DNA from: Squalus acanthias
Lineage: Eukaryota
Length of the DNA stretch: 64,000 nucleotides
NCBI GenBank assembly: GCA_030390025.1
Contig: CM059432.1
Coordinates: 3,534,001-3,598,000 of the forward strand
Direction: 5' to 3'
The notes under the pieces were generated by a model. The model saw nothing but the letters and a program-made list of their open reading frames with translations, did not search any database and was not told the DNA's origin. This document shows, in pieces, positions 7,652 through 33,452 of the stretch (its first letter is position 1; every line of letters begins with the position of its first letter). A program made the position numbers and the translations under genes.

Positions 7652-10600
7652 AACCTCCTCCAGCCCTACAATCCTCCCTCTCTCTGTAACCTCCTCCAGC
7701 CCTACAACCCTCCCTATCACAGTAACCTCATCCAGCCCCAACAACCCTCCCTCTCTCTGCAACCTCCTCCAGCCCCTACAACCCCCCTTATCTCTGTAAC
7801 CTCCTCCAGCCCCTACAACCCTCCCCATCTCTGTAACCTCCTCCAGCCCTACAACCATCCCTATCACTGTAACCTCATCCAGCCCCAACAACCCTCCCTC
7901 TCTCTGTAACCTCCTCCAGCCCCTACAACCCTCCTTATCTCTGTAACCTCCTCCAGCCCCTACAACCCTCCCCATCTCTGTAACCTTCTCCAGCCCCAAC
8001 AACCCTCCCTCTCTCTGTAACCTCCTCCAGCCCTACAACCCTCCTTATCTCTGTAACCTCCTCCAGCCCTACAACCCTCCCTCTCTCTGTAACCTCCTCC
8101 AGCCCTACAACCCTCTCCATCTCTGTAACCTCCTCCAGCCCAACAACCCTCCCTCTCTCTGTAACCTCCTTCAGCCCTACAACCCTCCCCATCTCTAACT
8201 TCCACCAGCCCCTACAACCCTCCCTATCTCGGTAACTTCCTCCAGCCTACAACCCTCCCTATCTCTGTAACCTCCTCCAGCCCCTACAACCCTCTCCATC
8301 TCTGTAACCTCCTCCAGCCCTACAACCTTCCCTCTCTCTGTAACCTCCTCCAGCCCTACAACCCTCCCTTATCTCTGTAACCTCCTCCAGCCCCTACAAC
8401 CCTCCCCATCTCTGTAACTTCCTCCAGCCCCTACAACCCTCCCTATCTCTGTAACCTCCTCCAGCCCTACAACCCTCCCTTATCTCTGTGACCCCCTCCG
8501 GCCCTACAACCCTCCCTTATCTCTGTAACCTCTTCAAGTCCTACAACCCTCCCTATCGCTGTAACCTCCTCCAGCCCTACAACCCTCCCTATCTCTGTAA
8601 CTTCATCCAGCCCCTACAAGCCTCCCTATCTCTCTAACCTCCTCCAGCCCTACAACCCTCCCTCTCTCTCTGTAACCTCCTCCAGCCCTACAACGCTCCC
8701 CATCTCTAACTTCCTCAAGCCCCTACAAACCTTCCTATCTCTGTAACCTCCTCCAGCCCTACAACCGTCCCTATCTCTGTAACCTCCTCCAGCCAAAAAC
8801 CCTCCCTATCTCTATAACCTCCTCCAGCTCTACAACCCTCTTCATCTCTGTAACCTCCTCCAACCTACAACCCTCCCTATCTTTGTAACCACTTCCAGCC
8901 CTACAACCCTCCCTATTTCTGTAACCTCCACCAGCCCTACAACCCTCCCTCTCTCTCTAACCTCCTCCAGCCTACAACCCTCCCTATCTCTGTAACCTCC
9001 TCCAGCCCTACAACCCTCCCTATCTCTGTAGCCTCCTCCAGCCCCTACAACCCTCTCCATCTCTGTAACCTCCTCCAGCCCTACAAGCCTCTCCATCTTG
9101 GTAACCTCCGTCAGCCCTACAACCCTCGCTATCTCTGTAACCTCCTCCAGCCCCTACAACCCTCTCCATCTCTGTAACCTCCTCCAGCCCTACAACCCTC
9201 TCCATCTTGGTAACCTCCGTCAGCCCTACAACCCTCCCTATCTCTGTAACCTCCTCCAGCCCCTACAACCCTCCCTATCTCGGTAACCTCCTCCAGCCTA
9301 CAACCCTCCCTATCTCTGTAACCTCCTCCAGCCCAACAACCCTCCCTCTCTCTGTAACCTCCTCCAGCCCTACAATCCTCCCTCTCTCTGTAACCTCCTC
9401 CAGCCCTACAACCCTCTCCATCTCTGTAACCTCCTCCAGCCCAACAACCCTCCCTCTCTCTGTAACCTCCTCCAGCCCCTACAACCCTCCCTATCTCGGT
9501 AACTTCCTCCAGCCTACAACCCTCCCCATCTCTGTAACCTCCTCCAGCCCAACAACCCTCCCTCTCTCTGTAACCTCCTCCAGCCCTACAATCCTCCCTC
9601 TCTCTGTAACCTCCTCCAGCCCCTACAACCCTCTCCATCTCTGTAACCTCCTCCAGCCCTACAACCTTCCCTCTCTCTGTAACCTCCTCCAGCCCTACAA
9701 CCCTCCCTTATCTCTGTAACCTCCTCCAGCCCCTACAACCCTCCCCATCTCTGTAACTTCCTCCAGCCCCTACAACCCTCCCTATCTCTGTAACCTCCTC
9801 CAGCCCTACAACCCTCCCTTATCTCTGTGACCCCCTCCGGCCCTACAACCCTCCCTTATCTCTGTAACCTCTTCCAGTCCTACAACCCTCCCTATCGCTG
9901 TAACCTCCTCCAGCCCTACAACCCTCCCTATCTCTGTAACCTCATCCAGCCCCTACAAGCCTCCCTATCTCTGTAAGCTCCTCCAGCCCTACAACCCTCG
10001 CTATCTCTGTAACCTCCTCCAGCCCCTACAACCCTCCCTATCTCTGTAACCTCCTCCAGCCCTACAACCCTCCCTATCTCTGTAACCTCCTCCAGCCCCT
10101 ACAACCCTCTCCATCTCTGTAACCTCCTCCAGCCCTACAACCCTCTCCAGCTTGGTAACCTCCGTCAGCCCTACAACCTTCCCTATCTCTGTAACCTCCT
10201 CCAGCCCCTACAACCCTCCGTATCTCGGTAACCTCCTCCAGCCTACAACCCTCCCTATCTCTGTAACCTCCTCCAGCCCTACAAACCCCCCTGAACTCTG
10301 TGACCTCCTCCGGCCCTACAACTCTCCCTATCTCTGTAACCTCCTCCAGCCCGACAACCTTCCCTATCTCTGTAACCTTCTCCAGCCCCTACATCCCTCC
10401 CTATCTCTGCAACCTCCTCCAGCCCTACAACTCTCCCTATCTCTGTAATCTCCTCCAGCCCTACCACCCTCGCTATCTCTGTAACTTCCTCCAGCCCTAC
10501 AACCCTCCCTATCTCTGTAACCTCCTCCAGCCCTACAACTCTCCCTATCTGTGTAACATCCTCCAGCCCTACAACCCTCCCTCTCTCTCTAACCTCCTCC

Positions 10601-13600
10601 AGCCCAACAACCCTCCCTCTCTCTCTGTAACCTCCTCCAGCCCGACAACGCTCCCCATCTCTAACTTCCTCCAGCCCCTACAACCCTCCCTATCTCTGTA
10701 ACCTACTCCAGCCCTACAACCCTCCCTATCTCTGTAGCCTCCTCCAATCCCTACAACCCTCTCCATCTTGGTAACCTCCGTCAGCCCTACAACCCTCCCT
10801 ATCTCTGTAACCTCCTCCAGCTCTACAACCCTCTTCATCTCTGTAACCTCCTCCAACCTACAACCCTCCCTATCTTTGTAACCACTTCCAGCCCTACAAC
10901 CCTCCTTATCTCTGTAAACTCCACCAGCCCTACAACCCTCCCTCTCTCTCTAACCTCCTCCAGCCTACAACCCTCCCTATCTCTATAACCTCCTCCAGCC
11001 CTACAACCCTCCCTATCTCTGTAACCTCTTCCAGCCCTACAACCCTCCCTATCTCTGTAACCTCCTCCAGCCCCTACAATGCTCCCTATCTCTGTAACCT
11101 ACTCCAGCCCTACAACCCTCCCTATCTCTGTAGCCTCCTCCAGCCCCTACAATCCTCTCCATCTCTGTAACCTCCTCCAGCCCTACAACCCTCTCCATCT
11201 TGGTAACCTCCGTCAGCCCTACAACCCTCCCTATCTCTGTAACCTCCTCCAGCCCTACAACCCTCTCCATCTTGGTAACCTCCGTCAGCCCTACAACTCT
11301 CCCTATCTCTGTAATCTCCTCCAGCCCTACCACCATCGCTATCTCTGTAACCTCCTCCAGCCCTACAACCCTCCTTAGCTCTGTAACCTCCGCTAGCCCT
11401 ACAACCCTCCCTATCTCTGTAACCTCCTCCAGCCCTACAACTCTCCTTAGCTCTGTAACCTCCTCTAGCCCGACAACCCTCCCTATCTCTGTAACCTCCT
11501 CCAGCCCTACAACTCTCCCTATCTCTGTAACCTCCTGCAGCCCTACAACCATCCCTTATCTCTGTAACCTCCTCCAGCCTTACAATCCTTCCTATCTCTG
11601 TAACTTCCTCCAGCCCCGACAACCCTCCTCATCTCTGTAACATCCTCCAGCCCTACAATCCTTCCTATCTCTGTAACCTCCTCCAGCCTACAACCCTCCC
11701 TATCTCTGTAACCTCCTCCAGCCCTACAACCCTCCCTATCTGTGTAACCTCCTCCAGCCCTACAACCCTCTCTCTCTCTCTCACCTCCTCCAGCCTACAA
11801 CCCTCCCTATCTTTGTAACCTCCTCCAGCCCTACAACACTCCCTATCTCTGTAACCTCCTCCACCCTACAACACTCCCTATCTCTGTAACCTCCTCCAGC
11901 CAATACAACCCTCCCTATCTCTGGAACCTCCTCCAGCCCTGCAACCCTCCCTATCTCTGTCACCTCTACCAGCCCCTACAACCCTCTAAATCTCTGTAAC
12001 CTCCTCCAGCCCTACAACCCTCTCCATCTTGGTAACCCCCGTCAGCCTTACAACCCTCCCTATCTCTGTAACCTCCTCCAGCCCCTACAACCCTCCCTAT
12101 CTCTGTAACCTCCTCCAGCTGACAACCCTCCCTATCTCTATAACCTCCTCCAGCCCTACTACCCTCCTCATCTCTGTAACCTCCACCAGCCTACAACCCT
12201 CCCTATCTCTGTAACCTTCTCCAGCCCTACAACTCTCCCTATCTCTGTAACCTCCTCCAGCCTACAACCCTCCCTATCTCTGTAACCTCCTCCAGCCCTA
12301 CAACCCTCCCTATCTCTGTAACCTCCTCCACCCTACAACACTCCCTATCTCTGTAACCTCCTCCAGCCCCTACAATCCTCCCTATATCTGTAACCTACTC
12401 CAGCCCTGCAACCCTCCCTATCTCCGTAGCCTCCTCCAGCCCTACAACCCTCCCTATCTGTGTAACCTCCTCCAGTCCTACAACCCTCCCTCTTTCTCTA
12501 ACCTCCTCCAGCCCAACAACCCTCCCTCTCTCTGTAACCTCCTCCAGCCCTACAACCCTCCCTCTCTCTCTAACCTCCTCCAGCCCAACAACCCTCCCTA
12601 TCTCTGTAACCTCCTCCAGCCCTACAACCCTCCCCATCTCTAACTTCCTCCAGCCCCTACAACCCTCCCTATCTCTGTAACCTCCTCCAGCCCTACAACC
12701 CTCCCTATCTCTGTAACCTCTTCCAGCTCTACAACCCTCCTCATCTCTGTAACCTCCTCCAACCTACAACCCTCCCTATCTCTGTAACCTCCTCCAGCCC
12801 TACAACCCTCCCTATCTCTGTAACCTCCTCCAGCCCTACAACCCTCCCTCTCTCTCTAACCTCCTCCAGCATACAACCCTCCCTATCTCTCTAACCTCCT
12901 CCAGCATACAACCCTCCCTATCTCTGTAACCTCCTCCAGCCCTACAACCCTCCCTATCTCTGTAACCTCCTCCAGCCTACAACCCTCTCTCTCTCTGTAA
13001 CCTCCTCCAGCCCTACAATTCTCCCTATCTCTGTAACTTCCTCCAGCCCTACAATCCTCCCTATCTCTGTAACTTCCTCCAGCACCTACAACCCTCCCTA
13101 TCTCTGTAACCTCCTCTAGCCCGACAAGATTCCCTATCTCTGTGACCTCCTCCAGCCGACAACCCTCCCTATCTCTATAACCTCCTCCAGCCCTTCAACC
13201 CTCCTTATCTCTGTAACCTTCTCCAGCCCTACAACTCTCCCTATCTCTGTAACCTCTTCAGGTCCTACAACCCTCCCTATCTCTGTAACCTCCTCCAGCC
13301 CCTACAACCCTCCCTATCTCTGTAACCACCTCCAGCCCCTACAACCCTCCCTATCTCTGTAACCTCCTCCAGCCCCTACAAGCCTCCCTATCTCTGTAAC
13401 CTCCTCCAGCCCCTACAACCCTCCCTATCTCTGTAACCTCCTCCAGCCCCTACAAGCCTCCCTATCTCTGTAACCTCCTCCAGCCCTACAGCCCTCCCTT
13501 ATCTCTGTAACCTCCTCCAGCCTTACAATCCTTCCTATCTCTGTAACTTCCTCCAGCCCCGACAACCCTCCTCATCTCTGTAACTCCTCCAGCCCTACAA

Positions 13601-16600
13601 TCCTTCCTATTTCTGTAACCTCCTCCAGCCCTACAAGTCTTCCTATCTCTGTAACCTCCTCCAGCCTACAACCCTCCCTATCTCTGTAACCTCCTCCAGC
13701 CCTACAACCCCCCCTGAACTCTGTGACCTCCTCCGGCCCTACAACTCTGCCTATCTCTGTAACCCCCTCCAGCCCGACAACCTTCCCTATCTCTGTAACC
13801 TTCTCCAGCCCCTACATCCCTCCCTATCTCTGTAACCTCCTCCAGCCCTACAACCCTCCCTTATCTCTGTAACCTCCTCCAGCCCTACAACCCTCCTTAT
13901 CTCTGTAACCTCCTCCAGCCCCGACAACCCTCCTCATCTCTGTAACATTCTCCAGCCCTACAACCCTCCCTATCTCTGTAACCTCCTCCAGCCTACAGCC
14001 CTCCCTTATCTCTGTAACCTCCTCCAGCCCTACAATCCTTCCTATCTCTGTAACCTCCTCCAGCCCCGACAACCCTCCTCATCTCTGTAACATTCTCCAG
14101 CCCTACAATCCTTCCTATTTCTGTAACCTCCTCCAGCCCTACAACTCTCCCTATCTCTGTAACCTCCTCCAGTGCTGCAACCCTCCCTATCTCTGGAACA
14201 TTCTCCAGCCCTACAGCCCTCCTTATCTCTGTAACCTCCACTAGCCCTACAGCACTCCCTTATCTCTGTAACCTCCTCCAGCCCTACAATCCTCCCTATC
14301 TCCGTAGCCTCCTCCAGCCCTACAACCCTCCCTATCTGTGTAACCTCCTCCAGTCCTACAACCCTCCCTCTTTCTCTAACCTCCTCCAGCCCAACAACCC
14401 TCCCTCTCTCTGTAACCTCCTCCAGCCCTACAACCCTACCCATCTCTAACTTCCTCCAGTCCTACAACCCTCCCTCTTTCTCTAACCTCCTCCAGCCCAA
14501 CAACCCTCCCTCTCTCTGTAACCTCCTCCAGCCCTACAACCCTCCCTCTCTCTCTAACCTCCTCCAGCCCAACAACCCTCCCTATCTCTGTAACCTCCTC
14601 CAGCCCTACAACCCTCCCCATCTCTAACTTCCTCCAGCCCCTACAACCCTCCCTATCTCTGTAACCTCCTCCAGCCCTACAACCCTCCCTATCTCTGTAA
14701 CCTCTTCCAGCTCTACAACCCTCCTCATCTCTGTAACCTCCTCCAACCTACAACCCTCCCTATCTCTGTAACCTCCTCCAGCCCTACAACCCTCCCTATC
14801 TCTGTAACCTCCTCCAGCCCTACAACCCTCCCTCTCTCTCTAACCTCCTCCAGCATACAACCCTCCCTATCTCTGTAACCTCCTCCAGCCCTACAACCCT
14901 CCCTATCTCTGTAACCTCCTCCAGCCTACAACCCTCTCTCTCTCTGTAACCTCCTCCAGCCCTACAATTCTCCCTATCTCTGTAACTTCCTCCAGCCCCT
15001 ACAATCCTCCCTATCTCTGTAACTTCCTCCAGCACCTACAACCCTCCCTATCTCTGTAACCTCCTCTAGCCCGACAAGATTCCCTATCTCTGTGACCTCC
15101 TCCAGCCGACAACCCTCCCTATCTCTATAACCTCCTCCAGCCCTTCAACCCTCCTTATCTCTGTAACCTTCTCCAGCCCTACAACTCTCCCTATCTCTGT
15201 AACCTCTTCAGGTCCTACAACCCTCCCTATCTCTGTAACCTCCTCCAGCCCCTACAACCCTCCCTATCTCTGTAACCACCTCCAGCCCCTACAACCCTCC
15301 CTATCTCTGTAACCTCCTCCAGCCCCTACAAGCCTCCCTATCTCTGTAACCTCCTCCAGCCCCTACAACCCTCCCTATCTCTGTAACCTCCTCCAGCCCC
15401 TACAAGCCTCCCTATCTCTGTAACCTCCTCCAGCCCTACAGCCCTCCCTTATCTCTGTAACCTCCTCCAGCCTTACAATCCTTCCTATCTCTGTAACTTC
15501 CTCCAGCCCCGACAACCCTCCTCATCTCTGTAACTCCTCCAGCCCTACAATCCTTCCTATTTCTGTAACCTCCTCCAGCCCTACAAGTCTTCCTATCTCT
15601 GTAACCTCCTCCAGCCTACAACCCTCCCTATCTCTGTAACCTCCTCCAGCCCTACAACCCCCCCTGAACTCTGTGACCTCCTCCGGCCCTACAACTCTGC
15701 CTATCTCTGTAACCCCCTCCAGCCCGACAACCTTCCCTATCTCTGTAACCTTCTCCAGCCCCTACATCCCTCCCTATCTCTGTAACCTCCTCCAGCCCTA
15801 CAACCCTCCCTTATCTCTGTAACCTCCTCCAGCCCTACAACCCTCCTTATCTCTGTAACCTCCTCCAGCCCCGACAACCCTCCTCATCTCTGTAACATTC
15901 TCCAGCCCTACAACCCTCCCTATCTCTGTAACCTCCTCCAGCCTACAGCCCTCCCTTATCTCTGTAACCTCCTCCAGCCCTACAATCCTTCCTATCTCTG
16001 TAACCTCCTCCAGCCCCGACAACCCTCCTCATCTCTGTAACATTCTCCAGCCCTACAATCCTTCCTATTTCTGTAACCTCCTCCAGCCCTACAACTCTCC
16101 CTATCTCTGTAACCTCCTCCAGTGCTGCAACCCTCCCTATCTCTGTAACATTCTCCAGCCCTACAGCCCTCCTTATCTCTGTAACCTCCACTAGCCCTAC
16201 AGCCCTCCCTTATCTCTGTAACCTCCTCCAGCCCTACAATCCTCCCTATATTTGTAACCTACTCCAGCCCTGCAACCCTCCCTATCTCCGTAGCCTCCTC
16301 CAGCCCTACAACCCTCCCTATCTGTGTAACCTCCTCCAGTCCTACAACCCTCCCTCTTTCTCTAACCTCCTCCAGCCCAACAACCCTCCCTCTCTCTGTA
16401 ACCTCCTCCAGCCCTACAACCCTACCCATCTCTAACTTCCTCCAGCCCCTACAACCCTCCCTTTCTCTGTAACCTCCTGCAGCCCTACAACCCTCCCTAT
16501 CTGTGTAACCTCCTCCAGCCCTACAACCCTCCCTCTCTCTCTAACCTCCTCAAGCCCTACAACCCTCCCTCTCTCTGTAACCTCCTCCAGCCCTACAACC

Positions 16601-19600
16601 CTCCCCATCTCTAACTTCCTCCAGCCCTACAACCCTCCTCATCTCTGTTACCTCCACCAGCCTACAACCCTCCCTATCTCTGTAACCTCCTCCAGCCATA
16701 CAACCCTCCCTATCTCTGTAACCTCCTCCACCCTACAACACTCCCTATCTCTGTAACCTCCTCCAGCCCCTACAATCCTCCCTATCTCTCTAACCTACTC
16801 CAGCCCTGCAACCCTCCCTATCTCTGTAACCTCCTCCAGCCCTAACAACCCTCCCTATCTCTGTAACCTCCTCCAGCCTACAACCCTCTCCATCTTGGTA
16901 ACCTCCGTCAGCCCTACAACCCTCCCTATCTCTGTAACCTCCTCCACCCCTACAACTCTCTCCATCTCTGTAACCTCCTCCAGCCCCTACAACCCTCCCT
17001 ATCTCTGTAACCTCCTCCAGCCCTACAACTCTACCTATCTCTGTAACCTCCTGCAGTCCTACAACCCTCTCTATCTGTGTAACCTCCTCCAGCCCTAACA
17101 ACCCTCCCTATCTCTGTAACCTCCTCCAGCCTACAACCCTCTCCATCTTGGTAACCTCCGTCAGCCCTACAACCCTCCCTATCTCTGTAACCTCCTCCAC
17201 CCCTACAGCTCTCTCCATCTCTGTAACCTCCTCCACCCCTACAATCCTCCCTATCTCTGTAACCTACTCCAGCCCTGCAACCCTCCCTATCTCTGTAACC
17301 TCCTCCAGCCCTAACAACCCTCCCTATCTCTGTAACCTCCTCCAGCCTACAACCCTCTCCATCTTGGTAACCTCCGTCAGCCCTACAACCCTCCCTATCT
17401 CTGTAACCTCCTCCACCCCTACAACTCTCTCCATCTCTGTAACCTCCTCCAGCCCCTACAACCCTCCCTATCTCTGTAACCTCCTCCAGCCCTACAACCC
17501 TCCCTCTCTCTCTAACCTCCTCCAGCATACAACCCTCCCTATCTCTGTAACCTCCTCCAGCCCTACAACCCTCCCTATCTCTGTAACCTCCTCCAGCCTA
17601 CAACCCTCTCTCTCTCTGTAACCTCCTCCAGCCCTACAATTCTCCCTATCTCTGTAACTTCCTCCAGCCCCTACAACCCTCCCTCTCTCTCTAACCTCCT
17701 CAAGCCCTACAACCCTCCCTCTCTCTGTAACCTCCTCCAGCCCTACAACCCTCCCCATCTCTAACTTCCTCCAGCCCTACAACCCTCCTCATCTCTGTTA
17801 CCTCCACCAGCCTACAACCCTCCCTATCTCTGTAACCTCCTCCAGCCATACAACCCTCCCTATCTCTGTAACCTCCTCCACCCTACAACACTCCCTATCT
17901 CTGTAACCTCCTCCAGCCCCTACAATCCTCCCTATCTCTCTAACCTACTCCAGCCCTGCAACCCTCCCTATCTCTGTAACCTCCTCCAGCCCTAACAACC
18001 CTCCCTATCTCTGTAACCTCCTCCAGCCTACAACCCTCTCCATCTTGGTAACCTCCGTCAGCCCTACAACCCTCCCTATCTCTGTAACCTCCTCCACCCC
18101 TACAACTCTCTCCATCTCTGTAACCTCCTCCAGCCCCTACAACCCTCCCTATCTCTGTAACCTCCTCCAGCCCTACAACTCTACCTATCTCTGTAACCTC
18201 CTGCAGTCCTACAACCCTCTCTATCTGTGTAACCTCCTCCAGCCCTAACAACCCTCCCTATCTCTGTAACCTCCTCCAGCCTACAACCCTCTCCATCTTG
18301 GTAACCTCCGTCAGCCCTACAACCCTCCCTATCTCTGTAACCTCCTCCACCCCTACAGCTCTCTCCATCTCTGTAACCTCCTCCACCCCTACAATCCTCC
18401 CTATCTCTGTAACCTACTCCAGCCCTGCAACCCTCCCTATCTCTGTAACCTCCTCCAGCCCTAACAACCCTCCCTATCTCTGTAACCTCCTCCAGCCTAC
18501 AACCCTCTCCATCTTGGTAACCTCCGTCAGCCCTACAACCCTCCCTATCTCTGTAACCTCCTCCACCCCTACAACTCTCTCCATCTCTGTAACCTCCTCC
18601 AGCCCCTACAACCCTCCCTATCTCTGTAACCTCCTCCAGCCCTACAACCCTCCCTCTCTCTCTAACCTCCTCCAGCATACAACCCTCCCTATCTCTGTAA
18701 CCTCCTCCAGCCCTACAACCCTCCCTATCTCTGTAACCTCCTCCAGCCTACAACCCTCTCTCTCTCTGTAACCTCCTCCAGCCCTACAATTCTCCCTATC
18801 TCTGTAACTTCCTCCAGCCCCTACAACCCTCCCTATCTCTGTAACCTCCTCCAGCCCTACAATCCTCCCTATCTCTGTAACTTCCTCCAGCCCCTACAAC
18901 CCTCCCTATCTCTGTAACCTCCTCTAGCCCGACAAGATTCCCTATCTCTGTAACCTCCTCCAGCCGACAACCCTCCCTATCTCTATAACCTCCTCCAGCC
19001 CTTCAACCCTCCTTATCTCTGTAACCTTCTCCAGCCCTACAACTCTCCCTATCTCTGTAACCTCTTCAAGTCCTACAACCCTCCCTATCTCTGTAATCTC
19101 CTCCAGCCCCTACAACCCTCCCTATCTCTGTAACCTCCTCCAGCCCCTACAAGCCTCCCTATCTCTGTAACCTCCTCCAGCCCCTACAACCCTCCCTATC
19201 TCTGTAACCTGCTCCAGCCCCTACAAGCCTCCCTAGCTCTGTAACCTCCTCCAGCCCTACAGCCCTCCCTTATCTCTGTAACCTCCTCCAGCCTTACAAT
19301 CCTTCCTATCTCTGTAACTTCCTCCAGCCCCGACAACCCTCCTCATCTCTGTAACATCCTCCAGCCCTACAATCCTTCCTATTTCTGTAACCTCCTCCAG
19401 CCCTACAAGTCTTCCTATCTCTGTAACCTCCTCCAGCCTACAACCCTCCCTATCTCTGTAACCTCCTCCAGCCCTACAACCCCCCCTGAACTCTGTGACC
19501 TCCTCCGGCCCTACAACTCTGCCTATCTCTGTAACCCCCTCCAGCCCGACAACCTTCCCTATCTCTGTAACCTTCTCCAGCCCCTACATCCCTCCCTATC

Positions 19601-22600
19601 TCTGTAACCTCCTCCAGCCCTACAACCCTCCCTTATCTCTGTAAGCTCCTCCAGCCCTACAACCCTCCTTATCTCTGTAACCTCTTGTAGTCCGACAACC
19701 CTCCCTATCTCTGTAACATTCTCCAGCCCTACAGCCCTCCTTATCTCTGTAACCTCCACGAGCCCTACAGCCCTCCCTTATCTCTGTAACCTCCTCCAGC
19801 CCTACAATCCTTCCTATCTCTGTAACCTCCTCCAGCCCCGACAACCCTCCTCATCTCTGTAACATTCTCCAGCCCTACAACCCTCCCTATCTCTGTAACC
19901 TCCTCCAGCCCTACAACCCTCCCTCTCTCTGTAACCTCCTCCACCCTACAACACTCCCTATCTCTGTAACCTCCTCCAGCCTACAACCCTCCCTATCTCT
20001 GTAACCTCCTCCAGCCCTACAACCCTCCCTATCTCTGTAACCTCCTCCACCCTACAACACTCCCTATCACTGTAACCTCCTCCAGCCCCTACAATCCTCC
20101 CTATATCTGTAACCTACTCCAGCCCTGCAACCCTCCCTATCTCCGTAGCCTCCTCCAGCCCTACAACCCTCCCTATCTGTGTAACCTCCTCCAGTCCTAC
20201 AACCCTCCCTCTTTCTCTAACCTCCTCCAGCCCAACAACCATCCCTCTCTCTGTAACCTCCTCCAGCCCTACAACCCTCCCCATCTCTAACTTCCTCCAG
20301 CCCCTACAACCCTCCCTTTCTCTGTAACCTCCTGCAGCCCTACAACCCTCCCTATCTGTGTAACCTCCTCCAGCCCTACAACCCTCCCTCTCTCTCTAAC
20401 CTCCTCAAGCCCTACAACCCTCCCTCTCTCTGTAACCTCCTCCAGCCCTACAACCCTCCCCATCTCTAACTTCCTCCAGCCCTACAACCCTCCTCATCTC
20501 TGTTACCTCCACCAGCCTACAACCCTCCCTATCTCTGTAACCTCCTCCAGCCATACAACCCTCCCTATCTCTGTAACCTCCTCCAGCCTACAACCCTCTC
20601 CATCTTGGTAACCTCCGTCAGCCCTACAACCCTCCCTATCTCTGTAACCTCCTCCACCCCTACAACTCTCTCCATCTCTGTAACCTCCTCCAGCCCCTAC
20701 AACCCTCCCTATCTCTGTAACCTCCTCCAGCCCTACAACTCTACCTATCTCTGTAACCTCCTGCAGTCCTACAACCCTCTCTATCTGTGTAACCTCCTCC
20801 AGCCCTAACAACCCTCCCTATCTCTGTAACCTCCTCCAGCCTACAACCCTCTCCATCTTGGTAACCTCCGTCAGCCCTACAACCCTCCCTATCTCTGTAA
20901 CCTCCTCCACCCCTACAGCTCTCTCCATCTCTGTAACCTCCTCCACCCCTACAATCCTCCCTATCTCTGTAACCTACTCCAGCCCTGCAACCCTCCCTAT
21001 CTCTGTAACCTCCTCCAGCCCTAACAACCCTCCCTATCTCTGTAACCTCCTCCAGCCTACAACCCTCTCCATCTTGGTAACCTCCGTCAGCCCTACAACC
21101 CTGCCTATCTCTGTAACCTCCTCCACCCCTACAACTCTCTCCATCTCTGTAACCTCCTCCAGCCCCTACAACCCTCCCTATCTCTGTAACCTCCTCCAGC
21201 CCTACAACCCTCCCTCTCTCTCTAACCTCCTCCAGCATACAACCCTCCCTATCTCTGTAACCTCCTCCAGCCCTACAACCCTCCCTATCTCTGTAACCTC
21301 CTCCAGCCTACAACCCTCTCTCTCTCTGTAACCTCCTCCAGCCCTACAATTCTCCCTATCTCTGTAACTTCCTCCAGCCCCTACAACCCTCCCTATCTCT
21401 GTAACCTCCTCCAGCCCTACAATCCTCCCTATCTCTGTAACTTCCTCCAGCCCCTACAACCCTCCCTATCTCTGTAACCTCCTCTAGCCCGACAAGATTC
21501 CCTATCTCTGTAACCTCCTCCAGCCGACAACCCTCCCTATCTCTATAACCTCCTCCAGCCCTTCAACCCTCCTTATCTCTGTAACCTTCTCCAGCCCTAC
21601 AACTCTCCCTATCTCTGTAACCTCTTCAAGTCCTACAACCCTCCCTATCTCTGTAATCTCCTCCAGCCCCTACAACCCTCCCTATCTCTGTAACCTCCTC
21701 CAGCCCCTACAAGCCTCCCTATCTCTGTAACCTCCTCCAGCCCCTACAACCCTCCCTATCTCTGTAACCTGCTCCAGCCCCTACAAGCCTCCCTAGCTCT
21801 GTAACCTCCTCCAGCCCTACAGCCCTCCCTTATCTCTGTAACCTCCTCCAGCCTTACAATCCTTCCTATCTCTGTAACTTCCTCCAGCCCCGACAACCCT
21901 CCTCATCTCTGTAACATCCTCCAGCCCTACAATCCTTCCTATTTCTGTAACCTCCTCCAGCCCTACAAGTCTTCCTATCTCTGTAACCTCCTCCAGCCTA
22001 CAACCCTCCCTATCTCTGTAACCTCCTCCAGCCCTACAACCCCCCCTGAACTCTGTGACCTCCTCCGGCCCTACAACTCTGCCTATCTCTGTAACCCCCT
22101 CCAGCCCGACAACCTTCCCTATCTCTGTAACCTTCTCCAGCCCCTACATCCCTCCCTATCTCTGTAACCTCCTCCAGCCCTACAACCCTCCCTTATCTCT
22201 GTAAGCTCCTCCAGCCCTACAACCCTCCTTATCTCTGTAACCTCTTGTAGTCCGACAACCCTCCCTATATCTGTAACCTCCTCCAGCCCCTACAACCCTC
22301 CCTATCTCTGTAACCTCCTCCAGCCTACAGCCCTCCCTTATCTCTGTAACCTCCTCCAGCCCTACAATCCTTCCTATCTCTGTAACCTCCTCCAGCCCCG
22401 ACAACCCTCCTCATCTCTGTAACATTCTCCAGCCCTACAATCCTTCCTATTTCTGTAACCTCCTCCAGCCCTACAACTCTCCCTATCTCTGTAACCTCCT
22501 CCAGTGCTGCAACCCTCCCTATCTCTGTAACATTCTCCAGCCCTACAGCCCTCCTTATCTCTGTAACCTCCACCAGCCCTACAGCCCTCCCTTATCTCTG

Positions 22601-25600
22601 TAACCTCCTCCAGCCCTACAATCCTTCCTATCTCTGTAACCTCCTCCAGCCCCGACAACCCTCCTCATCTCTGTAACATTCTCCAGCCCTACAACCCTCC
22701 CTATCTCTGTAACCTCCTCCAGCCCTACAACCCTCCCTCTCTCTGTAACCTCCTCCACCCTACAACACTCCCTATCTCTGTAACCTCCTCCAGCCTACAA
22801 CCCTCCCTATCTCTGTAACCTCCTCCAGCCCTACAACCCTCCCTATCTCTGTAACCTCCTCCACCCTACAACACTCCCTATCACTGTAACCTCCTCCAGC
22901 CCCTACAATCCTCCCTATATCTGTAACCTACTCCAGCCCTGCAACCCTCCCTATCTCCGTAGCCTCCTCCAGCCCTACAACCCTCCCTATCTGTGTAACC
23001 TCCTCCAGTCCTACAACCCTCCCTCTTTCTCTAACCTCCTCCAGCCCAACAACCCTCCCTCTCTCTGTAACCTCCTCCAGCCCTACAACCCTCCCCATCT
23101 CTAACTTCCTCCAGCCCCTACAACCCTCCCTTTCTCTGTAACCTCCTGCAGCCCTACAACCCTCCCTATCTGTGTAACCTCCTCCAGCCCTACAACCCTC
23201 CCTCTCTCTCTAACCTCCTCAAGCCCTACAACCCTCCCTCTCTCTGTAACCTCCTCCAGCCCTACAACCCTCCCCATCTCTAACTTCCTCCAGCCCTACA
23301 ACCCTCCTCATCTCTGTTACCTCCACCAGCCTACAACCCTCCCTATCTCTGTAACCTCCTCCAGCCATACAACCCTCCCTATCTCTGTAACCTCCTCCAC
23401 CCTACAACACTCCCTATCTCTGTAACCTCCTCCAGCCCCTACAATCCTCCCTATCTCTGTAACCTCCTCCAGCCTACAGCCCTCCCTTATCTCTGTAACC
23501 TCCTCCAGCCCTACAATCCTTCCTATCTCTGTAACCTCCTCCAGCCCTACAACCCTCCCCATCTCTAACTTCCTCCAGCCCTACAACCCTCCTCATCTCT
23601 GTTACCTCCACCAGCCTACAACCCTCCCTATCTCTGTAACCTCCTCCAGCCATACAACCCTCCCTATCTCTGTAACCTCCTCCACCCTACAACACTCCCT
23701 ATCTCTGTAACCTCCTCCAGCCCCTACAATCCTCCCTATCTCTGTAACCTACTCCAGCCCTGCAACCCTCCCTATCTCTGTAACCTCCTCCAGCCCTAAC
23801 AACCCTCCCTATCTCTGTAACCTCCTCCAGCCTACAACCCTCTCCATCTTGGTAACCTCCGTCAGCCCTACAACCCTCCCTATCTCTGTAACCTCCTCCA
23901 CCCCTACAACTCTCTCCATCTCTGTAACCTCCTCCAGCCCCTACAACCCTCCCTATCTCTGTAACCTCCTCCAGCCCTACAACTCTACCTATCTCTGTAA
24001 CCTCCTGCAGTCCTACAACCCTCTCTATCTGTGTAACCTCCTCCAGCCCTAACAACCCTCCCTGTCTCTGTAACCTCCTCCAGCCTACAACCCTCTCCAT
24101 CTTGGTAACCTCCGTCAGCCCTACAACCCTCCCTATCTCTGTAACCTCCTCCACCCCTACAGCTCTCTCCATCTCTGTAACCTCCTCCAGCCCCTACAAT
24201 CCTCCCTATCTCTGTAACCTACTCCAGCCCTGCAACCCTCCCTATCTCTGTAACCTCCTCCAGCCCTAACAACCCTCCCTATCTCTGTAACCTCCTCCAG
24301 CCTACAACCCTCTCCATCTTGGTAACCTCCGTCAGCCCTACAACCCTCCCTATCTCTGTAACCTCCTCCACCCCTACAACTCTCTCCATCTCTGTAACCT
24401 CCTCCAGCCCCTACAACCCTCCCTATCTCTGTAACCTCCTCCAGCCCTACAACCCTCCCTCTCTCTCTAACCTCCTCCAGCATACAACCCTCCCTATCTC
24501 TGTAACCTCCTCCAGCCCTACAACCCTCCCTATCTCTGTAACCTCCTCCAGCCTACAACCCTCTCTCTCTCTGTAACCTCCTCCAGCCCTACAATTCTCC
24601 CTATCTCTGTAACTTCCTCCAGCCCCTACAACCCTCCCTATCTCTGTAACCTCCTCCAGCCCTACAATCCTCCCTATCTCTGTAACTTCCTCCAGCCCCT
24701 ACAACCCTCCCTATCTCTGTAACCTCCTCTAGCCCGACAAGATTCCCTATCTCTGTAACCTCCTCCAGCCGACAACCCTCCCTATCTCTATAACCTCCTC
24801 CAGCCCTTCAACCCTCCTTATCTCTGTAACCTTCTCCAGCCCTACAACTCTCCCTATCTCTGTAACCTCTTCAAGTCCTACAACCCTCCCTATCTCTGTA
24901 ATCTCCTCCAGCCCCTACAACCCTCCCTATCTCTGTAACCTCCTCCAGCCCCTACAACCCTCCCTATCTCTGTAACCTCCTCCAGCCCCTACAAGCCTCC
25001 CTATCTCTGTAACCTCCTCCAGCCCTACAGCCCTCCCTTATCTCTGTAACCTCCTCCAGCCTTACAATCCTTCCTATCTCTGTAACTTCCTCCAGCCCCT
25101 ACAACCCTCCCTATCTCTGTAACCTCCTCCAGCCCTACAAACCTTCCTATTTCTGTAACCTCCTCCAGCCCTACAAGTCTTCCTATCTCTGTAACCTCCT
25201 CCAGCCTACAACCCTCCCTATCTCTGTAACCTCCTCCAGCCCTACAACCCCCCCTGAACTCTGTGACCTCCTCCGGCCCTACAACTCTGCCTATCTCTGT
25301 AACCCCCTCCAGCCCGACAACCTTCCCTATCTCTGTAACCTTCTCCAGCCCCTACATCCCTCCCTATCTCTGTAACCTCCTCCAGCCCTACAACCCTCCC
25401 TTATCTCTGTAACCTCCTCCAGCCCTACAACCCTCCTTATCTCTGTAACCTCTTGTAGTCCGACAACCCTCCCTATATCTGTAACCTCCTCCAGCCCCTA
25501 CAACCCTCCCTATCTCTGTAACCTCCTCCAGCCTACAGCCCTCCCTTATCTCTGTAACCTCCTCCAGCCCTACAATCCTTCCTATCTCTGTAACCTCCTC

Positions 25601-28600
25601 CAGCCCCGACAACCCTCCTCATCTCTGTAGCATTCTCCAGCCCTACAATCCTTCCTATTTCTGTAACCTCCTCCAGCCCTACAACTCTCCCTATCTCTGT
25701 AACCTCCTCCAGTGCTGCAACCCTCCCTATCTCTGTAACATTCTCCAGCCCTACAGCCCTCCTTATCTCTGTAACCTCCACTAGCCCTACAGCCCTCCCT
25801 TATCTCTGTAACCTCCTCCAGCCCTACAATCCTTCCTATCTCTGTAACCTCCTCCAGCCCCGACAACCCTCCTCATCTCTGTAACATTCTCCAGCCCTAC
25901 AACCCTCCCTATCTCTGTAACCTCCTCCAGCCCTACAACCCTCCCTCTCTCTGTAACCTCCTCCACCCTACAACACTCCCTATCTCTGTAACCTCCTCCA
26001 GCCCTACAACACTCCCTATCACTGTAACCTCCTCCAGCCCCTACAATCCTCCCTATATCTGTAACCTACTCCAGCCCTGCAACCCTCCCTATCTCCGTAG
26101 CCTCCTCCAGCCCTACAACCCTCCCTATCTGTGTAACCTCCTCCAGTCCTACAACCCTCCCTCTTTCTCTAACCTCCTCCAGCCCAACAACCCTCCCTCT
26201 CTCTGTAACCTCCTCCAGCCCTACAACCCTCCCCATCTCTAACTTCCTCCAGCCCCTACAACCCTCCCTTTCTCTGTAACCTCCTGCAGCCCTACAACCC
26301 TCCCTATCTGTGTAACCTCCTCCAGCCCTACAACCCTCCCTCTCTCTCTAACCTCCTCAAGCCCTACAACCCTCCCTCTCTCTGTAACCTCCTCCAGCCC
26401 TACAACCCTCCCCATCTCTAACTTCCTCCAGCCCTACAACCCTCCTCATCTCTGTTACCTCCACCAGCCTACAACCCTCCCTATCTCTGTAACCTCCTCC
26501 AGCCATACAACCCTCCCTATCTCTGTAACCTCCTCCACCCTACAACACTCCCTATCTCTGTAACCTCCTCCAGCCCCTACAATCCTCCCTATCTCTGTAA
26601 CCTCCTCCAGCCTACAGCCCTCCCTTATCTCTGTAACCTCCTCCAGCCCTACAATCCTTCCTATCTCTGTAACCTCCTCCAGCCCCGACAACCCTCCTCA
26701 TCTCTGTTACCTCCACCAGCCTACAACCCTCCCTATCTCTGTAACCTCCTCCAGCCATACAACCCTCCCTATCTCTATAACCTCCTCCACCCCTACAGCT
26801 CTCTCCATCTCTGTAACCTCCTCCAGCCCCTACAATCCTCCCTATCTCTGTAACCTACTCCAGCCCTGCAACCCTCCCTATCTCTGTAACCTCCTCCAGC
26901 CCTAACAACCCTCCCTATCTCTGTAACCTCCTCCAGCCTACAACCCTCTCCATCTTGGTAACCTCCGTCAGCCCTACAACCCTCCCTATCTCTGTAACCT
27001 CCTCCACCCCTACAACTCTCTCCATCTCTGTAACCTCCTCCAGCCCCTACAACCCTCCCTATCTCTGTAACCTCCTCCAGCCCTACAACTCTACCTATCT
27101 CTGTAACCTCCTGCAGTCCTACAACCCTCTCTATCTGTGTAACCTCCTCCAGCCCTAACAACCCTCCCTATCTCTGTAACCTCCTCCAGCCTACAACCCT
27201 CTCCATCTTGGTAACCTCCGTCAGCCCTACAACCCTCCCTATCTCTGTAACCTCCTCCACCCCTACAACTCTCTCCATCTCTGTAACCTCCTCCAGCCCA
27301 ACAACCCTCCCTATCTCTGTAACCTCCTCCACCCCTACAGCTCTCTCCATCTCTGTAACCTCCTCCAGCCCCTACAATCCTCCCTATCTCTGTAACCTAC
27401 TCCAGCCCTGCAACCCTCCCTATCTCTGTAACCTCCTCCAGCCCTACAACCCTCCCTATCTCTGTAACCTCCTCCAGCCTACAACCCTCTCCATCTTGGT
27501 AACCTCCGTCAGCCCTACAACCCTCCCTATCTCTGTAACCTCCTCCACCCCTACAACTCTCTCCATCTCTGTAACCTCCTCCAGCCCCTACAACCCTCCC
27601 TATCTCTGTAACCTCCTCCAGCCCTACAACCCTCCCTCTCTCTCTAACCTCCTCCAGCATACAACCCTCCCTATCTCTGTAACTTCCTCCAGCCCCTACA
27701 ACCCTCCCTATCTCTGTAACCTCCTCCAGCCCTACAATCCTCCCTATCTCTGTAACTTCCTCCAGCCCTACAACCCTCCCTATCTCTGTAACCTCCTCTA
27801 GCCCGACAAGATTCCCTATCTCTGTAACCTCCTCCAGCCGACAACCCTCCCTATCTCTATAACCTCCTCCAGCCCTTCAACCCTCCTTATCTCTGTAACC
27901 TTCTCCAGCCCTACAACTCTCCCGATCTCTGTAACCTCTTCAAGTCCTACAACCCTCCCTATCTCTGTAACCTCCTCCAGCCCCTACAACCCTCCCTATC
28001 TCTGTAACCTCCTCCAGCCCCTACAACCCTCCCTATCTCTGTAACCTCCTCCAGCCCCTACAAACCTCCCTATCTCTGTAACCTCCTCCAGCCCCTACAA
28101 CCCTCCCTATCTGTGTAACCTCCTCCAGCCCCTACAAGCCTCCCTATCTCTGTAACCTCCTCCAGCCCTACAGCCCTCCCTTATCTCTGTAACCTCCTCC
28201 AGCCTTACAATCCTTCCTATCTCTGTAACTTCCTCCAGCCCCGACAACCCTCCTCATCTCTGTAACATCCTCCAGCCCTACAATCCTTCCTATTTCTGTA
28301 ACCTCCTCCAGCCCTACAAGTCTTCCTATCTCTGTAACCTCCTCCAGCCTACAACCCTCCCTATCTCTGTAACCTCCTCCAGCCCTACAACCCCCCCTGA
28401 ACTCTGTGACCTCCTCCGGCCCTACAACTCTGCCTATCTCTGTAACCCCCTCCAGCCCGACAACCTTCCCTATCTCTGTAACCTTCTCCAGCCCCTACAT
28501 CCCTCCCTATCTCTGTAACCTCCTCCAGCCCTACAACCCTCCCTTATCTCTGTAACCTCCTCCAGCCCTACAACCCTCCTTATCTCTGTAACCTCTTGTA

Positions 28601-29687
28601 GTCCGACAACCCTCCCTATATCTGTAACCTCCTCCAGCCCCTACAACCCTCCCTATCTCTGTAACCTCCTCCAGCCTACAGCCCTCCCTTATCTCTGTAA
28701 CCTCCTCCAGCCCTACAATCCTTCCTATCTCTGTAACCTCCTCCAGCCCCGACAACCCTCCTCATCTCTGTAACATTCTCCAGCCCTACAATCCTTCCTA
28801 TTTCTGTAACCTCCTCCAGCCCTACAACTCTCCCTATCTCTGTAACCTCCTCCAGTGCTGCAACCCTCCCTATCTCTGTAACATTCTCCAGCCCTACAGC
28901 CCTCCTTATCTCTGTAACCTCCACTAGCCCTACAGCCATCCCTTATCTCTGTAACCTCCTCCAGCCCTACAATCCTTCCTATCTCTGTAACCTCCTCCAG
29001 CCCCGACAACCCTCCTCATCTCTGTAACATTCTCCAGCCCTACAACTCTCCCTGTCTCTGTAACCTCCTCCAGTGCTGCAACCCTCCCTATCTCTGTAAC
29101 ATTCTCCAGCCCTACAGCCCTCCTTATCTCTGTAACCTCCGCTAGCCCTACAACCATCCCTATCTCTGTAACCTCCTCCAGCCCTACAACTCTCCCTATC
29201 TCTGTAACCTCCACCAGCCCTACAACCCTCCCCATCTCTGTGACCTCCTCCAGCCCTACAACTCTCCCTTATCTCTGTAACTGCCTCTAGCCCAACAACC
29301 CTCCCTATCTTTGTAACCTCCTCCAACCCTACAACTCTCCCTATCTCTGTAATCTCCTCCAGCCCTACAACCCTCCCTATCTTTGTAAACTCCTCCAGCC
29401 CTACAAACCTCCCTATCTCTGTAACCTCCCCCAGCCCCTACAACCCTCCCTAACTCTGTAAGCTCCTCCAGCCCTACAAGCCTTCCTATCTTTGTAAACT
29501 CCTCCAGCCCTACAACCCTCCGAGATCTTTGTGCTCCTCCAGCCCTACAACCCTTCCTATCTCTGTAATCCTCTCCAGCCATACAGCCATCCCTTTCTCT
29601 GTAATCTCTCCAGCCCTACAACCCTTTGAGATCTTTGTGCTCATTCAGCCCTACAACCCTCCTAATCGCTGTAGCCTCCTCTAGCCC
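7652..29687 (+). repeat. ~22 kb tandem array, 36-bp unit AACCCTCCCTATCTCTGTAACCTCCTCCAGCCCTAC (roughly 610 units; 35- and 37-bp variants), L2-derived, with higher-order blocks
   Basis: The repeat is directly visible. The unit matches the single-copy segment in the L2 copies at 201-241, 5893-5933 and 37610-37649. Unit count is array length divided by 36. Confidence 0.98.
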
Positions 29688-32600
29688 TTTTGTTTTTTAT
29701 TCATGGGATGTGGGCGTTGCTGGCAAGGCCAGCATTTAATACCCAACACTAAGGGGTAAAAATTCAGTTGGTTGCGCCTCCCATTAGCGCCTTAAGAGGG
29801 CGCTAATGGGGCGCAAAGCCGCTAATGCCCGGGCGCAGCGATGTTTGCGCCGCTCGGGAACTTAACTTGACATTGTGCGGCGGCGCTAAAACTTACCGCT
29901 GCGACCACCTGCGCGCGCAGATTGTGACGTCATTCCATGGTGCAACGCCCTTGTGGCGCCCCTGGAGCGGAAATTGAGTGGCGCCCCCTGCCTTACCGCC
30001 TGGCGCATCCAACAACCAGAAGACTGGAACGCTATCAATCGCTGTGGGGCTGGTGGGGGGCGCTATTTAAAGGGGGCCTCTTCTTGCCTTTTATTGTTGG
30101 TGGCATTTTTGAACTACGCATTCTGAGAGAGAGAGGGAGAGACTTCTGGAGAGATTCAACGTTGTGTGAAGGAGTTTTGGGTACTGAGCAGCACTTTGCA
30201 GGTTCATTTTGATTTGCCATTCCTTGTATCGATTTAGCAGAGACTGTGGGAGCTGCACTCTGTGCTCTTTGCCTGGTACTCTCCATTGTTCTTTCCAGCA
30301 CATTTGATGTGCAAGTCTCTCCAGGCCGAGATTCAAGGCTGCAATGAACAGGATGTGGATGGAAAGCAAGATTAACCATCCCCTTTAAGAACTGGCCCGT
30401 GCCATTGTGTGTGTGTTCCATTGCTGACTGACATTACATGAGCTTCGCCAGCGCTCTGAGTTAGCGCCTCACTCCTTGGCCTTTGCGCCTTAAGACAGGT
30501 GTGCAGCGCCTGCTTTAGCGCTCCACTCACCTCCCGGGGCGGTAAAAGTGAAGTTTCCAGTCAGTGCCGATAATTAGCGCCAGGCGCTAATATTTGCGTC
30601 CAGACGATATTTGCGCCCCAAATGGTGCGCGACCTAATTTCTACCCCTAATTGCCCTTGAGAAGGTGGTGGTGAACTGCCTTCTTGAACCGCTGCAGTCC
30701 GTGTGGTGAAGGTACTCCCACAGTGCTGTTAAGGAGGGGATTCCAGAATTTTGACCCAGCAACGATGAAGGAACGGCATTATATTTCCAAGTCAGGATGG
30801 TGTGTAACTTGGAGGGAAACTTGCGCCTGCTGCCCTTGTCCTTATGTTCTTGTAGGTGGTAGAGGTCGTTGGTTTGGGAGGTGCTGTCGAAGAAGCCTTG
30901 GCGAGTAGCTACAGTGCATCTTTTAGATGGTACACACTGCAGCCATGGTGCACCGGTGGTGCAGGGAATGAATGTTTAAGGTGGTAGATGGGGTGCCAAT
31001 CAAGCGGGCTGCTTTGTCTTGGATGGTGTCGAGCTTCTTGAGTGTTGTTGGAGCCGCACTCATCCAGGCAAGTAGAGAGTATTCCATCACACTCCTGACT
31101 TGTGCCTTGTAGAAGGTTGAAAGGCTTTGGGGAGTCAGGAGGTGAGACACTCGCCACAGAATACCTAGCCTCTGACCTGCTCTTGTTGCCACAGTATTTA
31201 TGTGGCTGGTCCAGTTAAGTTTCTGGTCAATGGTAACCCCCAGGATGTTGATGGTGGGGAATTTGGTGATGGTAATGCCATTGAATATCAAGGGGCGGTG
31301 GTTAGACTCTTGCTTGTTGGAGATAGTCATTGCCTGGCACTTGTGTGGTGTGAATGTTACTTGCCACTTATCAGCCCAAGCCTGAATGTCGTTCAGTTCT
31401 TGTTGCATGCAAGCATGGACTGCTTCATTATCTGTGGAGTTGTGAATGGCATTGAACACTGTGCAGTCAGCAGTGAACATCCCCACTTCTGACCTTATGA
31501 TGGAGGGAAGGGCATTGATGAAGCAGCTGAAGATGGTTGGGTCTAGGACACTGCCCTGAGGAACTCCTGCAGTGATGTCCTGGGGCTGTGATGATTGATC
31601 TTCAACCATCACAATCATCTCCCTTTGTGCTAGGTATGACTCCAGCCAGTGGAGCGTTTCCCCCCTGATTCCCATTGACTTCAGTTTTACTAGGGCTCCT
31701 TGATGCCAGACTCGTTCAAATGCTGCCTTGATGTCAAGGGCAGTCACTCTCACCTCACCTCTGGAATTCAGCTCCTTTGTCCATGTTTGGACCAAGGCTG
31801 TAATGAGGTCTGGAGCTGAGAGGTCCTGCCGGAACCCAAACTGAGCATCGCTGAGCAGGTTATTGGTGAGTAAGTGCCGTTTGATAGCACTGTTGATGAC
31901 ATCTTCCATCACTTTGCTGATGATTGAGAGTAGACTGATGGGGTGGTAATTAGATGGATTGGATTTGTCCTGCTTTTTGTGGACAGGACATACCTGGGCA
32001 GTTTTCCACATTGTCGGATAGATGCCAGTGTTGTAGCTGTACTGGAACAGCTTGGCTAGAGGCGCGGCTAGTTCTGGAGCACAAGTCTTCAGCACGATAG
32101 CCGGGATGTTGTCGGGACCCATAGCCTTTAGTGTATCCATTGCACTCAGCTGTTTCTTGATATCACGTGGAGTGAATCGAATTGGCTGAAGACTGGCTTT
32201 TGTGATGGTGGGGACCTCAGGAGGATGCCGATATGAATCATCCACTGAAGATGGTTGCAAATGCTTCAGCCTTGTCCTTTGCACTCACGTGCTGGGCTCC
32301 ACCATCATTGAGGATGGGGATATTCTTGGAGCCTCCTCCTCCCGTTAGTTGTTTAATGGTCCACCACCATTCACGACTGGATGTGGCAGGACTGTAGAGC
32401 TTTGATTTGATCCGTTGATTGTGGGATCGCTTAGCTTTGTCTATAACATGCTGCTTCCACTGTTTAGCATGCATGTAGTCCTGTGTTGCAGCTTCCCCAG
32501 GTTGGCACCCCATTTTTAGGTACACCTGGTACTGCTCCTGGATCCTCTTCTACACTCCTTATTGAACCAGGTCCCCTGACTTGATGGTAATGGTAGAATG

Positions 32601-33085
32601 AAGGATATGCCAGGCCATGAGGTTACAGATTGTGGTGGAATACAATTCTGCAGCTTCTGATGGTCTACAGCGCCTCATGGATGCCCAGTTTTGAGCTGCT
32701 AGATCTGTTCTGAATCTATCCCATTTAACACAGTGGTATTGACACAAAACACAGTGGAGGGTGTCCTCAATTTGAAGACGGGACTTCGTCTCCACAATGA
32801 CTGTGCAGTGGTCACTGCTACTGATACTGTCATGGACAGAGGCGTCTGCGACAGGTAGATTGGGGAGGACGAGGTCAAGTAGGTTTTTCGCTCGTGTTGG
32901 TTCTCTCACCACCTGTCGCAGGCCCAGACTGGCAGTTTTGTCCTTCAGGACTCAGCCAGTTCGGTCAGTAGTGGTGCTACCGAGCCACTCTTGGTGGTGG
33001 ACATTGAAGTCCCCCACGCAGAGTACATTCTGTGCCCTTGCTACTCTCAGTGCTTCTTCCAAGTGGTACTCAACATGGATTCATC
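29688..33085 (-). mobile_element. CR1-group non-LTR element (Zenon-like, clade tentative), 5'-truncated, inserted into the array end
   Basis: APE motifs (GDFNVH, EPTR..NLLDLVL, SDH), RT ORF 30923..32284 (KAMGPDNIP, QFGFR, LDIKAAF, GVPQGSVL) and an A-rich tail at ~29690. Stops and frameshifts are present. Confidence 0.85.
29753..30647. mobile_element. PIF/Harbinger-type MITE, 895 bp, TAA TSD
   Basis: TAA at 29750-29752 and 30648-30650; TIR GGGGTAAAAATT / AATTTCTACCCC. The empty site is visible in sister LINE copies at ~54335 and ~60345. Confidence 0.88.
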
Positions 33086-33452
33086 AGTACTACAACCCTC
33101 CCTATCTTTGTAGTCTCCTCCAGCCCTACAACCCTCCGAGTTCTTTGTGTTCCTCCAGCACTACAACCTTTCCTATCGTTGTAACCTCCTCCAGCCCTCC
33201 AACCCTCCAAGATCTCTGCACTCCTCCAATTCTGGCCTCTTGTGCATCCCTGATTTTCATCACTCCATCATCGGCGGCCGTGCCTTCACCTGCGAAGGCT
33301 CTGAGCTCTGGAATTCCCTCCCTAATCCTCTCCGCTTCTCTACCTCTCTCTCCTCCTTTAAGACGCTCCTTAAAACCTACCTCTTTGACCAAGCTTTTGG
33401 TCACCTGTCCTTATATCTCCTTATGTGGCTCAGTGTTGAATTTTGTTTGATA

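Follow-up and report, generated by a model that had tools for sequence, protein, structure and literature searches.

How can a long tandem array come to lie inside the protein-coding part of a retroelement, and is such an array an isolated case? The question is raised by a stretch of 64,000 nucleotides from Squalus acanthias (GCA_030390025.1, contig CM059432.1, positions 3,534,001 to 3,598,000 of the forward strand; hereafter "the window"), in which a 36-bp unit is repeated hundreds of times and leads, beyond an interruption, into the end of open reading frame 2 (ORF2) of a long interspersed nuclear element (LINE), its parent. Within a genome of 3.7 Gb, the array is found on a contig of 154 Mb, at a distance of 3.5 Mb from one end, and belongs to a dispersed family, most members of which sit in register inside copies of the same LINE. 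The reading that we prefer, with a probability of roughly 70%, is that these arrays began by repeated microhomology-mediated duplication at the DNA level, in place, and were then enlarged by block amplification, as in the model of Haber and Louis.

The array and the LINE segment of which it is made

The 36-bp array described in a first-pass annotation of this DNA was recovered in two ways: Tandem Repeats Finder (TRF) reported positions 7652-29688 with a period of 36, 610.4 copies and 86% matches, and our own segmentation divided the array into 611 units, each about two mismatches away from the majority unit. Translated in one frame, the unit reads PPYLCNLLQPYN. Many unit types in the first 5 kb and in the last 25 units are unique, and the core of the array (13,000-28,300) consists of recent block duplications with 32 to at least 161 units per block and 99.8-100% identity between blocks of 1.1-1.7 kb. 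Such near-identical internal blocks suggest that the array may be subject to turnover. The direct-repeat model refers to head-to-tail units of 10-100 bp, a range that includes the present one of 36 bp, repeated 611 times; the array, 22 kb long and a member of a dispersed family, exceeds the limit of 100 units for minisatellites that is given in the available part of PMC6947457.

The origin of the unit can be read from LINE copies that contain it only once. Three ordinary copies in the window do so, as previously noted (Table 1), and the 12 residues encoded by the unit of an ordinary copy align without gaps to one stretch only in 107 of the 120 proteins found to be homologous, and with a gap in one more; the homologues that carry names are mostly from bony fish (teleosts). 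Because the unit is single and colinear in these 107 homologues, it is old ORF2 coding sequence, and the idea that the LINE had captured a pre-existing satellite is not borne out. Homologues that are about 50-56% identical carry the reverse transcriptase family RVT_1 and, in most cases, an endonuclease family, while the Pfam labels assigned to the 120 homologous proteins include no RNase H family. The parent is an endonuclease-reverse transcriptase LINE, which we take to belong to the L2 clade on account of its C-terminal motif and 3' tail.

At its 3' side the array is still connected to this parent. A later LINE insertion, formerly placed at 29688-33085, is real, but its bounds are corrected here to 29689 and about 33089, and the phase of the array is preserved across it with an imperfect overlap of 4-7 bp. 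The units then resume, as had been claimed, with about 3.5 units from 33090 onwards, and run into the end of the parent's ORF2, the reading at 33114-33470 matching 105 of 120 homologous LINE proteins through to their last residues. Only three units of a 35-bp register exist in the window, at 29522, 29628 and 33138; since they flank the later insertion on both sides and have private letters in common, array and 3' parent were once one piece. These units, and the ancestral single-copy state of the segment in ORF2, agree with the proposed expansion in situ from a LINE copy. That the parent is still attached, however, holds for its 3' half only: an upstream piece of it beside the left array edge was not found in a search covering 50 kb to the left of the window, and the nearest plus-strand parent pieces ending at the unit lie at least 13.7 kb before the window start. 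After the array had formed, the second LINE would have inserted near its 3' edge; the parent's 5' part would have been lost, because a copy that had begun where the left edge now lies would lack the bases needed for the unit. The array is probably a non-coding by-product rather than a functional part of a gene; in a search for host genes, none of four open frames from unique DNA matched a Pfam family above the cut-off.

Direct repeat, registers and a dispersed family of arrays

Ordinary copies of the parent possess an imperfect direct repeat, in which block A contains the words CCCTCC, ATCTCTG and CTCCTCCA, and block B, 36 bp downstream of it, repeats all three. The words measure 6, 7 and 8 bp, and in one main-family copy the two blocks agree at all 21 word positions. 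A switch within the first, second or third word predicts a unit of 36, 37 or 35 bp, respectively, and all three have been observed: the 37-bp and 35-bp junctions, which were searched for only after these registers had been predicted, gave 486 and 6 matches. A fourth, upstream-shifted unit was seen at two loci (L318, 2500-2800, and L126, ~1500-1570), with a short match between entry motif and unit.

The 36-bp junction is abundant in the genome. A tandem-only 50-base pattern across it has 950 exact matches, and a 26-base junction pattern has 50,544 matches at up to two mismatches; the latter had no match in 600 kb of unselected DNA, and reversed-pattern controls for the junction searches likewise returned none. 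By extrapolation, the 36-bp LINE segment gives rise to about 78,000 units, or 2.8 Mb, of tandem DNA.

For a census of arrays, loci were taken from the first-listed junction matches, part of them picked for an intact 3' exit, and a few entries represent halves of arrays split by insertions. The 97 census arrays were reduced to 90 once shared flanks had been collapsed. Both edges are visible in 84 arrays; LINE flanks in register are present on both sides in 46, on the 3' side only in 21, on the 5' side only in 12 and on neither side in five, with a chance expectation of about 1% per side. The question of whether other arrays keep the flanks of the LINE, put forward with the first-pass annotation, is thus answered by 79 of 84 that retain at least one in register. 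Array sizes extend from two or three units up to 414, and the small arrays are pure for either the 36-bp or the 37-bp register.

Raw reads point to the same position. In reads of two runs placed on a single-unit copy, depth amounts to about 19,600 at the unit and to at most 2,570 elsewhere, an approximately eightfold peak that is inflated by a reference matching exactly at the unit. Among the joints listed, 14 of 15 go back at the unit site (there are 6,335 further joints), which is the main tandem hotspot in raw reads within the 3' 1.3 kb of the element. Go-back joints at the unit site also occur in contigs of four other organisms.

Arrayed copies are a small minority of the parent family, as exact matches in the main family number 28 for the last unit of an array and 276 for the single unit. 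The earlier suggestion that the LINE seeds such arrays genome-wide stands insofar as a family of arrays with LINE flanks is demonstrated, but it applies to a small share of copies only, none of 58 unselected ordinary copies having an array (upper bound about 5%). The minority is also unevenly distributed: the six largest contigs (C1-C6) hold 2 of the 28 last-unit matches versus 89 of the 276 single-unit matches (p = 0.004). Arrays lie near contig ends in 29 of 40 cases on C1-C17, and in 16 of 17 cases where 37-bp arrays on C1-C4 are concerned. Interstitial groups of 36-bp arrays were noticed on C1 (101-102 Mb), C2 (146-156 Mb), C3 (75-113 Mb) and C5 (75-88 Mb) of genome G000, and it is our guess that they mark old chromosome ends or centromeric regions. 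Shorter shark chromosomes are described as richer in simple tandem repeats in the portion of PMC10620051 at hand.

How the arrays may have started

According to the preferred reading, the parent's two short near-repeats, one unit apart, would allow a DNA-level slip in a single dead copy. The first duplication would be a microhomology-mediated slip or repair event in which gain is favoured over loss; the resulting perfect dimer could then grow by unequal exchange or gene conversion, and later growth may have proceeded by duplication of multi-unit blocks. Births of this kind would have been independent at many copies, with small chromosomes and the vicinity of chromosome ends as the most frequent sites. 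In favour of independent births are the registers together with four flank classes, equal flank ages and privately fixed letters: 36-bp arrays occur in all four named flank-motif classes, flank divergence is 0.081 for arrays and 0.089 for singles (p = 0.57), and all units have the same letters private to their locus in 3 of 11 arrays and, in another count, in 6 of 47. On the tree, 36-bp arrays are scattered among singles, with 33 changes compared to a shuffled mean of 36.8. A role of the direct repeat is suggested by a sister subfamily in which all three words are degraded and which has 2,189 native matches but no 36-bp junction, and no tandem case among the 100 matches listed.

Several observations, on the other hand, weigh against this reading. 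Reciprocal exchange predicts deletions to be as frequent as duplications, yet loss products have 1 and 3 matches compared to 13,013 intact entries, in searches that covered the loss products of the first two registers; deletions being far rarer, a gain bias must be added, and under a DNA-level birth this bias is unexplained. The sister subfamily is not a clean control, because it is younger (4.2% versus 10.5%) and because its substitutions affect the motif of the unit as well; either age or motif could account for its lack of arrays. Most arrays consist of the family-majority unit, which also fits a birth at insertion, although the arrays had been selected by exact patterns. None of the unselected copies is arrayed, and the enrichment at contig ends is uneven, with 4 of 11 36-bp arrays on C1-C6 near ends versus 32 of 89 singles. 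A single clade was not rejected by an approximately unbiased (AU) test, whether it comprised all arrays (p = 0.246), only the 36-bp arrays (0.319) or only the 37-bp arrays (0.907); the flank tree is nearly star-like, and the test of a single origin is without power. The 36-bp arrays are mildly clustered on the tree (1 of 500 shuffles as low), and one flank class is enriched in arrays (14 of 23, p = 0.03). Loci L116 and L120 (1.79 and 2.43 Mb on G000:C1) are 99.3% identical over 3 kb including flanks, which indicates either that the segment was duplicated recently or that two haplotypes of it were assembled. Furthermore, the length of about 22 kb is that of the array as assembled.

The most serious competitor is a birth at retrotransposition, in which the reverse transcriptase copies block B and the unit, stalls at A and slips back to B, so that insertions start with at least two units and DNA turnover enlarges them later. 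We consider this unlikely, although a gain far above loss would follow from it naturally, and although the 21 arrays without the 5' flank only, like the array in the window, resemble truncated insertions. The family-majority unit in most arrays is also in its favour, the lack of an RNase H label among the homologues would leave the RNA template intact, and a subfamily without an A/B match, such as the sister subfamily, would be expected not to slip. However, the excess of 5'-only over 3'-only loss (21 versus 12) is not significant (p = 0.16) and comes from a set in which part of the arrays were chosen because their 3' exit was intact. In some arrays every unit has the same private letters, which fits a founder copy that had already diverged, and the enrichment on small chromosomes and unplaced contigs points to an effect of the host region. 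A broader version, equally doubtful in our view, would have the LINE's reverse transcriptase produce ready-made minisatellite seeds genome-wide, a habit that the later subfamily lost through four substitutions in the near-repeats.

Still less probable is a spread from one or a few array-bearing source elements, or by segmental duplication, as for the LTR12 repeat (LTR: long terminal repeat). The AU test does not reject a single clade, the 36-bp unit keeps the frame, and shared flanks reveal duplicated loci such as L116 and L120; but there are two main registers, each with small pure arrays, arrays are found across several flank classes, their flanks match those of singles in age and variety, and single-unit copies dominate. 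At the far end of improbability we place the capture of a pre-existing satellite by the LINE and an assembly artefact. Capture conflicts with the single-copy coding state of the unit in the homologues. As for an artefact, the near-identical blocks of the core could have been mis-assembled in their exact length, and the locus is unbridged by reads: from about 3% of one run, 11,517 reads were placed, of which 117 were at least 99% alike and none bridged the array, and no listed sequencing run contained half of the junction's words. Against this, tandem junctions are plentiful in raw Illumina reads, and the array comprises 192 unit types in irregular blocks. The array as assembled is real.

Some candidate explanations and arguments were set aside. 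Minisatellites of the CEB1 and CEB25 type are driven by G-quadruplexes; a drive of this kind was rejected for the array, which has three canonical matches in 22 kb and a G4Hunter-like mean of 1.01, other parts of the parent scoring higher. A truncation hotspot at the unit was also rejected, as match starts in the 58 unselected copies fell 10 times in the unit and 10 times in the preceding 30 bp. Units are more uniform than flanks in 46 of 47 arrays, but this was not used as support, since exact patterns had served to choose the arrays and the unit is free of CpG. That unit-length variants recur in block copies (142 of 142) was not used either, the argument being circular.

Neighbouring repeats and known systems

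The features around the array are compiled in Table 1. Other copies of the repeat that is interrupted at the array start, the fragment of which we take for a CR1-type tail, run on into a tail of their own. The inserted LINE itself contains an insert of about 0.9 kb (~29750-30645, by eye); together with ~2737-3470 and ~56845-57555 it is one of the GC-rich 0.7-0.9 kb inserts with inverted ends recognised by eye, which are likely non-autonomous DNA elements. Nested in the presumably CR1-type piece within the parent's tail is what we assume to be a separate element, 228 bp in length (33840-34067), with TG..CA ends and flanked by 5-bp direct repeats, resembling a solo LTR. A short element with a 47/24-bp internal repeat is common to the window (58652-58765) and to locus L142 (~250-620).

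Table 1. Features of the window that bear on the array, its edges and its parent LINE
Position	Strand	Feature	Evidence or remark
204..241	-	Single unit in longer ordinary copy (1-1750; reverse transcriptase frame 310-1347)	RVT_1 E=1.6e-25
5893..5933	-	Single unit in ordinary copy	
7602..7651	+	3' fragment of another abundant repeat, interrupted at array start	61 blast matches in fetched loci, 21 covering exactly 7602-7651
7652..29688	+	Minisatellite array	611 copies of the 36-bp unit, in 192 different strings; left edge mid-unit
29518..29688	+	Degenerate 3' edge, including two units of the 35-bp register	
29689..33089 (3' bound approximate)	-	Later 5'-truncated LINE of another family	Reverse transcriptase reading frame 30923-32284, RVT_1 E=4e-31; ends mapped via other copies
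33090..33202	+	Final array units (~3.5), including third 35-bp-register unit at 33138	
33203..33228	+	Copy B (downstream) of the parent's imperfect direct repeat; array exit to ordinary ORF2	A/B alignment of ordinary copy
33229..33452	+	Parent LINE: ORF2 C-terminus and beginning of 3' tail	6,712 candidates in genome; best 39 other copies 89-91% identical
33453..34121	+	Presumed CR1-type 3' piece inserted into the parent's tail	Read from sequence
34122..34200	+	Remainder of the parent's 3' tail	By-eye match to tails of ordinary copies L002-L010
37610..37649	+	Single unit in ordinary copy	

Tandem units of other kinds were encountered as well. Two arrays with about 34 copies of a 23-bp unit are located on G000:C8 at ~3,690,600 and 3,695,600 (distal_right 92610-93373 and 97566-98350; L258), and their unit matches a segment of the same parent LINE situated some 100 bp upstream of the 36-bp site. 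A 33-bp minisatellite with 15 copies, from a common short interspersed nuclear element (SINE), lies at ~3,497,000 of the same contig (distal_left 162983-163476). The occurrence of the 23-bp LINE repeat and the 33-bp SINE repeat in an unselected sample argues that the array-forming habit is general in this genome. In L050 and L051, units similar to the 33-bp SINE repeat adjoin arrays; SINE-like tandem units also abut 36-bp arrays, and in L052 tandem units that apparently derive from a CR1-type 3' tail are found directly 3' of three 36-bp arrays, in a locally triplicated block.

The starts of minisatellites are difficult to study because births are rare, one-off events. Here, one site in very many near-identical copies provides arrays from two to more than 600 units, three predictable registers and rare loss products, which allows the birth rate to be counted against microhomology, age and chromosome position, and the gain bias to be tested directly. 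The value of the array family is therefore that of a large natural experiment on minisatellite birth. A few megabases of the genome's tandem DNA come from one LINE segment, which implies no function.

A literature search for the 36-bp unit or for a minisatellite from a shark LINE returned nothing relevant, its scope excluding supplements, subscription papers and Dfam/Repbase, where the unit may be catalogued; the accessible part of PMC11406177 likewise has nothing on the 36-bp unit. The class of mechanism is already published, and the present family is an unusually clear instance of it. That minisatellites can be born where short direct repeats flank a motif (Haber and Louis 1998), and that some derive from Alu (Jurka and Gentles 2006), is described in the available portions of PMC6947457 and PMC3389668. 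As in those cases, a motif between direct repeats of 5-10 bp in an abundant retroposon was duplicated and amplified, and one unit is found at many loci. In contrast, the parent sequence here is the coding part of a LINE ORF2, the unit comes in three lengths, one for each crossover word, array length extends to 22 kb, a natural control is provided by a sister subfamily without the repeat, and products of loss are much rarer than those of gain.

Among tandem repeats derived from human transposable elements, AluS and LTR12 stand out as hotspots (Ahmed and Liang 2012, PMC3389668, as far as accessible); only about 6% of these repeats fit a known initiation model, and the majority have two units. 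The present family resembles them in that multi-locus repeats come from one region of a transposable element, with a hotspot at a given element position, and differs in that a single site, which fits such a model, dominates the 3' 1.3 kb of the element. Moreover, the LTR12 repeat is thought to travel with its element, whereas most copies of the LINE have a single unit. Among satellites related to LINE ORF2, the section of PMC9659126 available to us lists chicken HinfI (CR1) as well as Phodopus PROsat and seal Pvc20 (L1). These, too, are tandem DNA from LINE ORF2, but as listed there they are satellites similar to part of a LINE, while the arrays reported here are situated in register inside many copies of the parent. 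In fission yeast, a pair of short homologies likewise leads to tandem duplication, and for such microhomology-mediated duplications reversion is about 100 times faster than formation, according to the part of PMC8639346 at our disposal; the arrays of Squalus acanthias, unlike these, persist and grow, which requires a gain bias.

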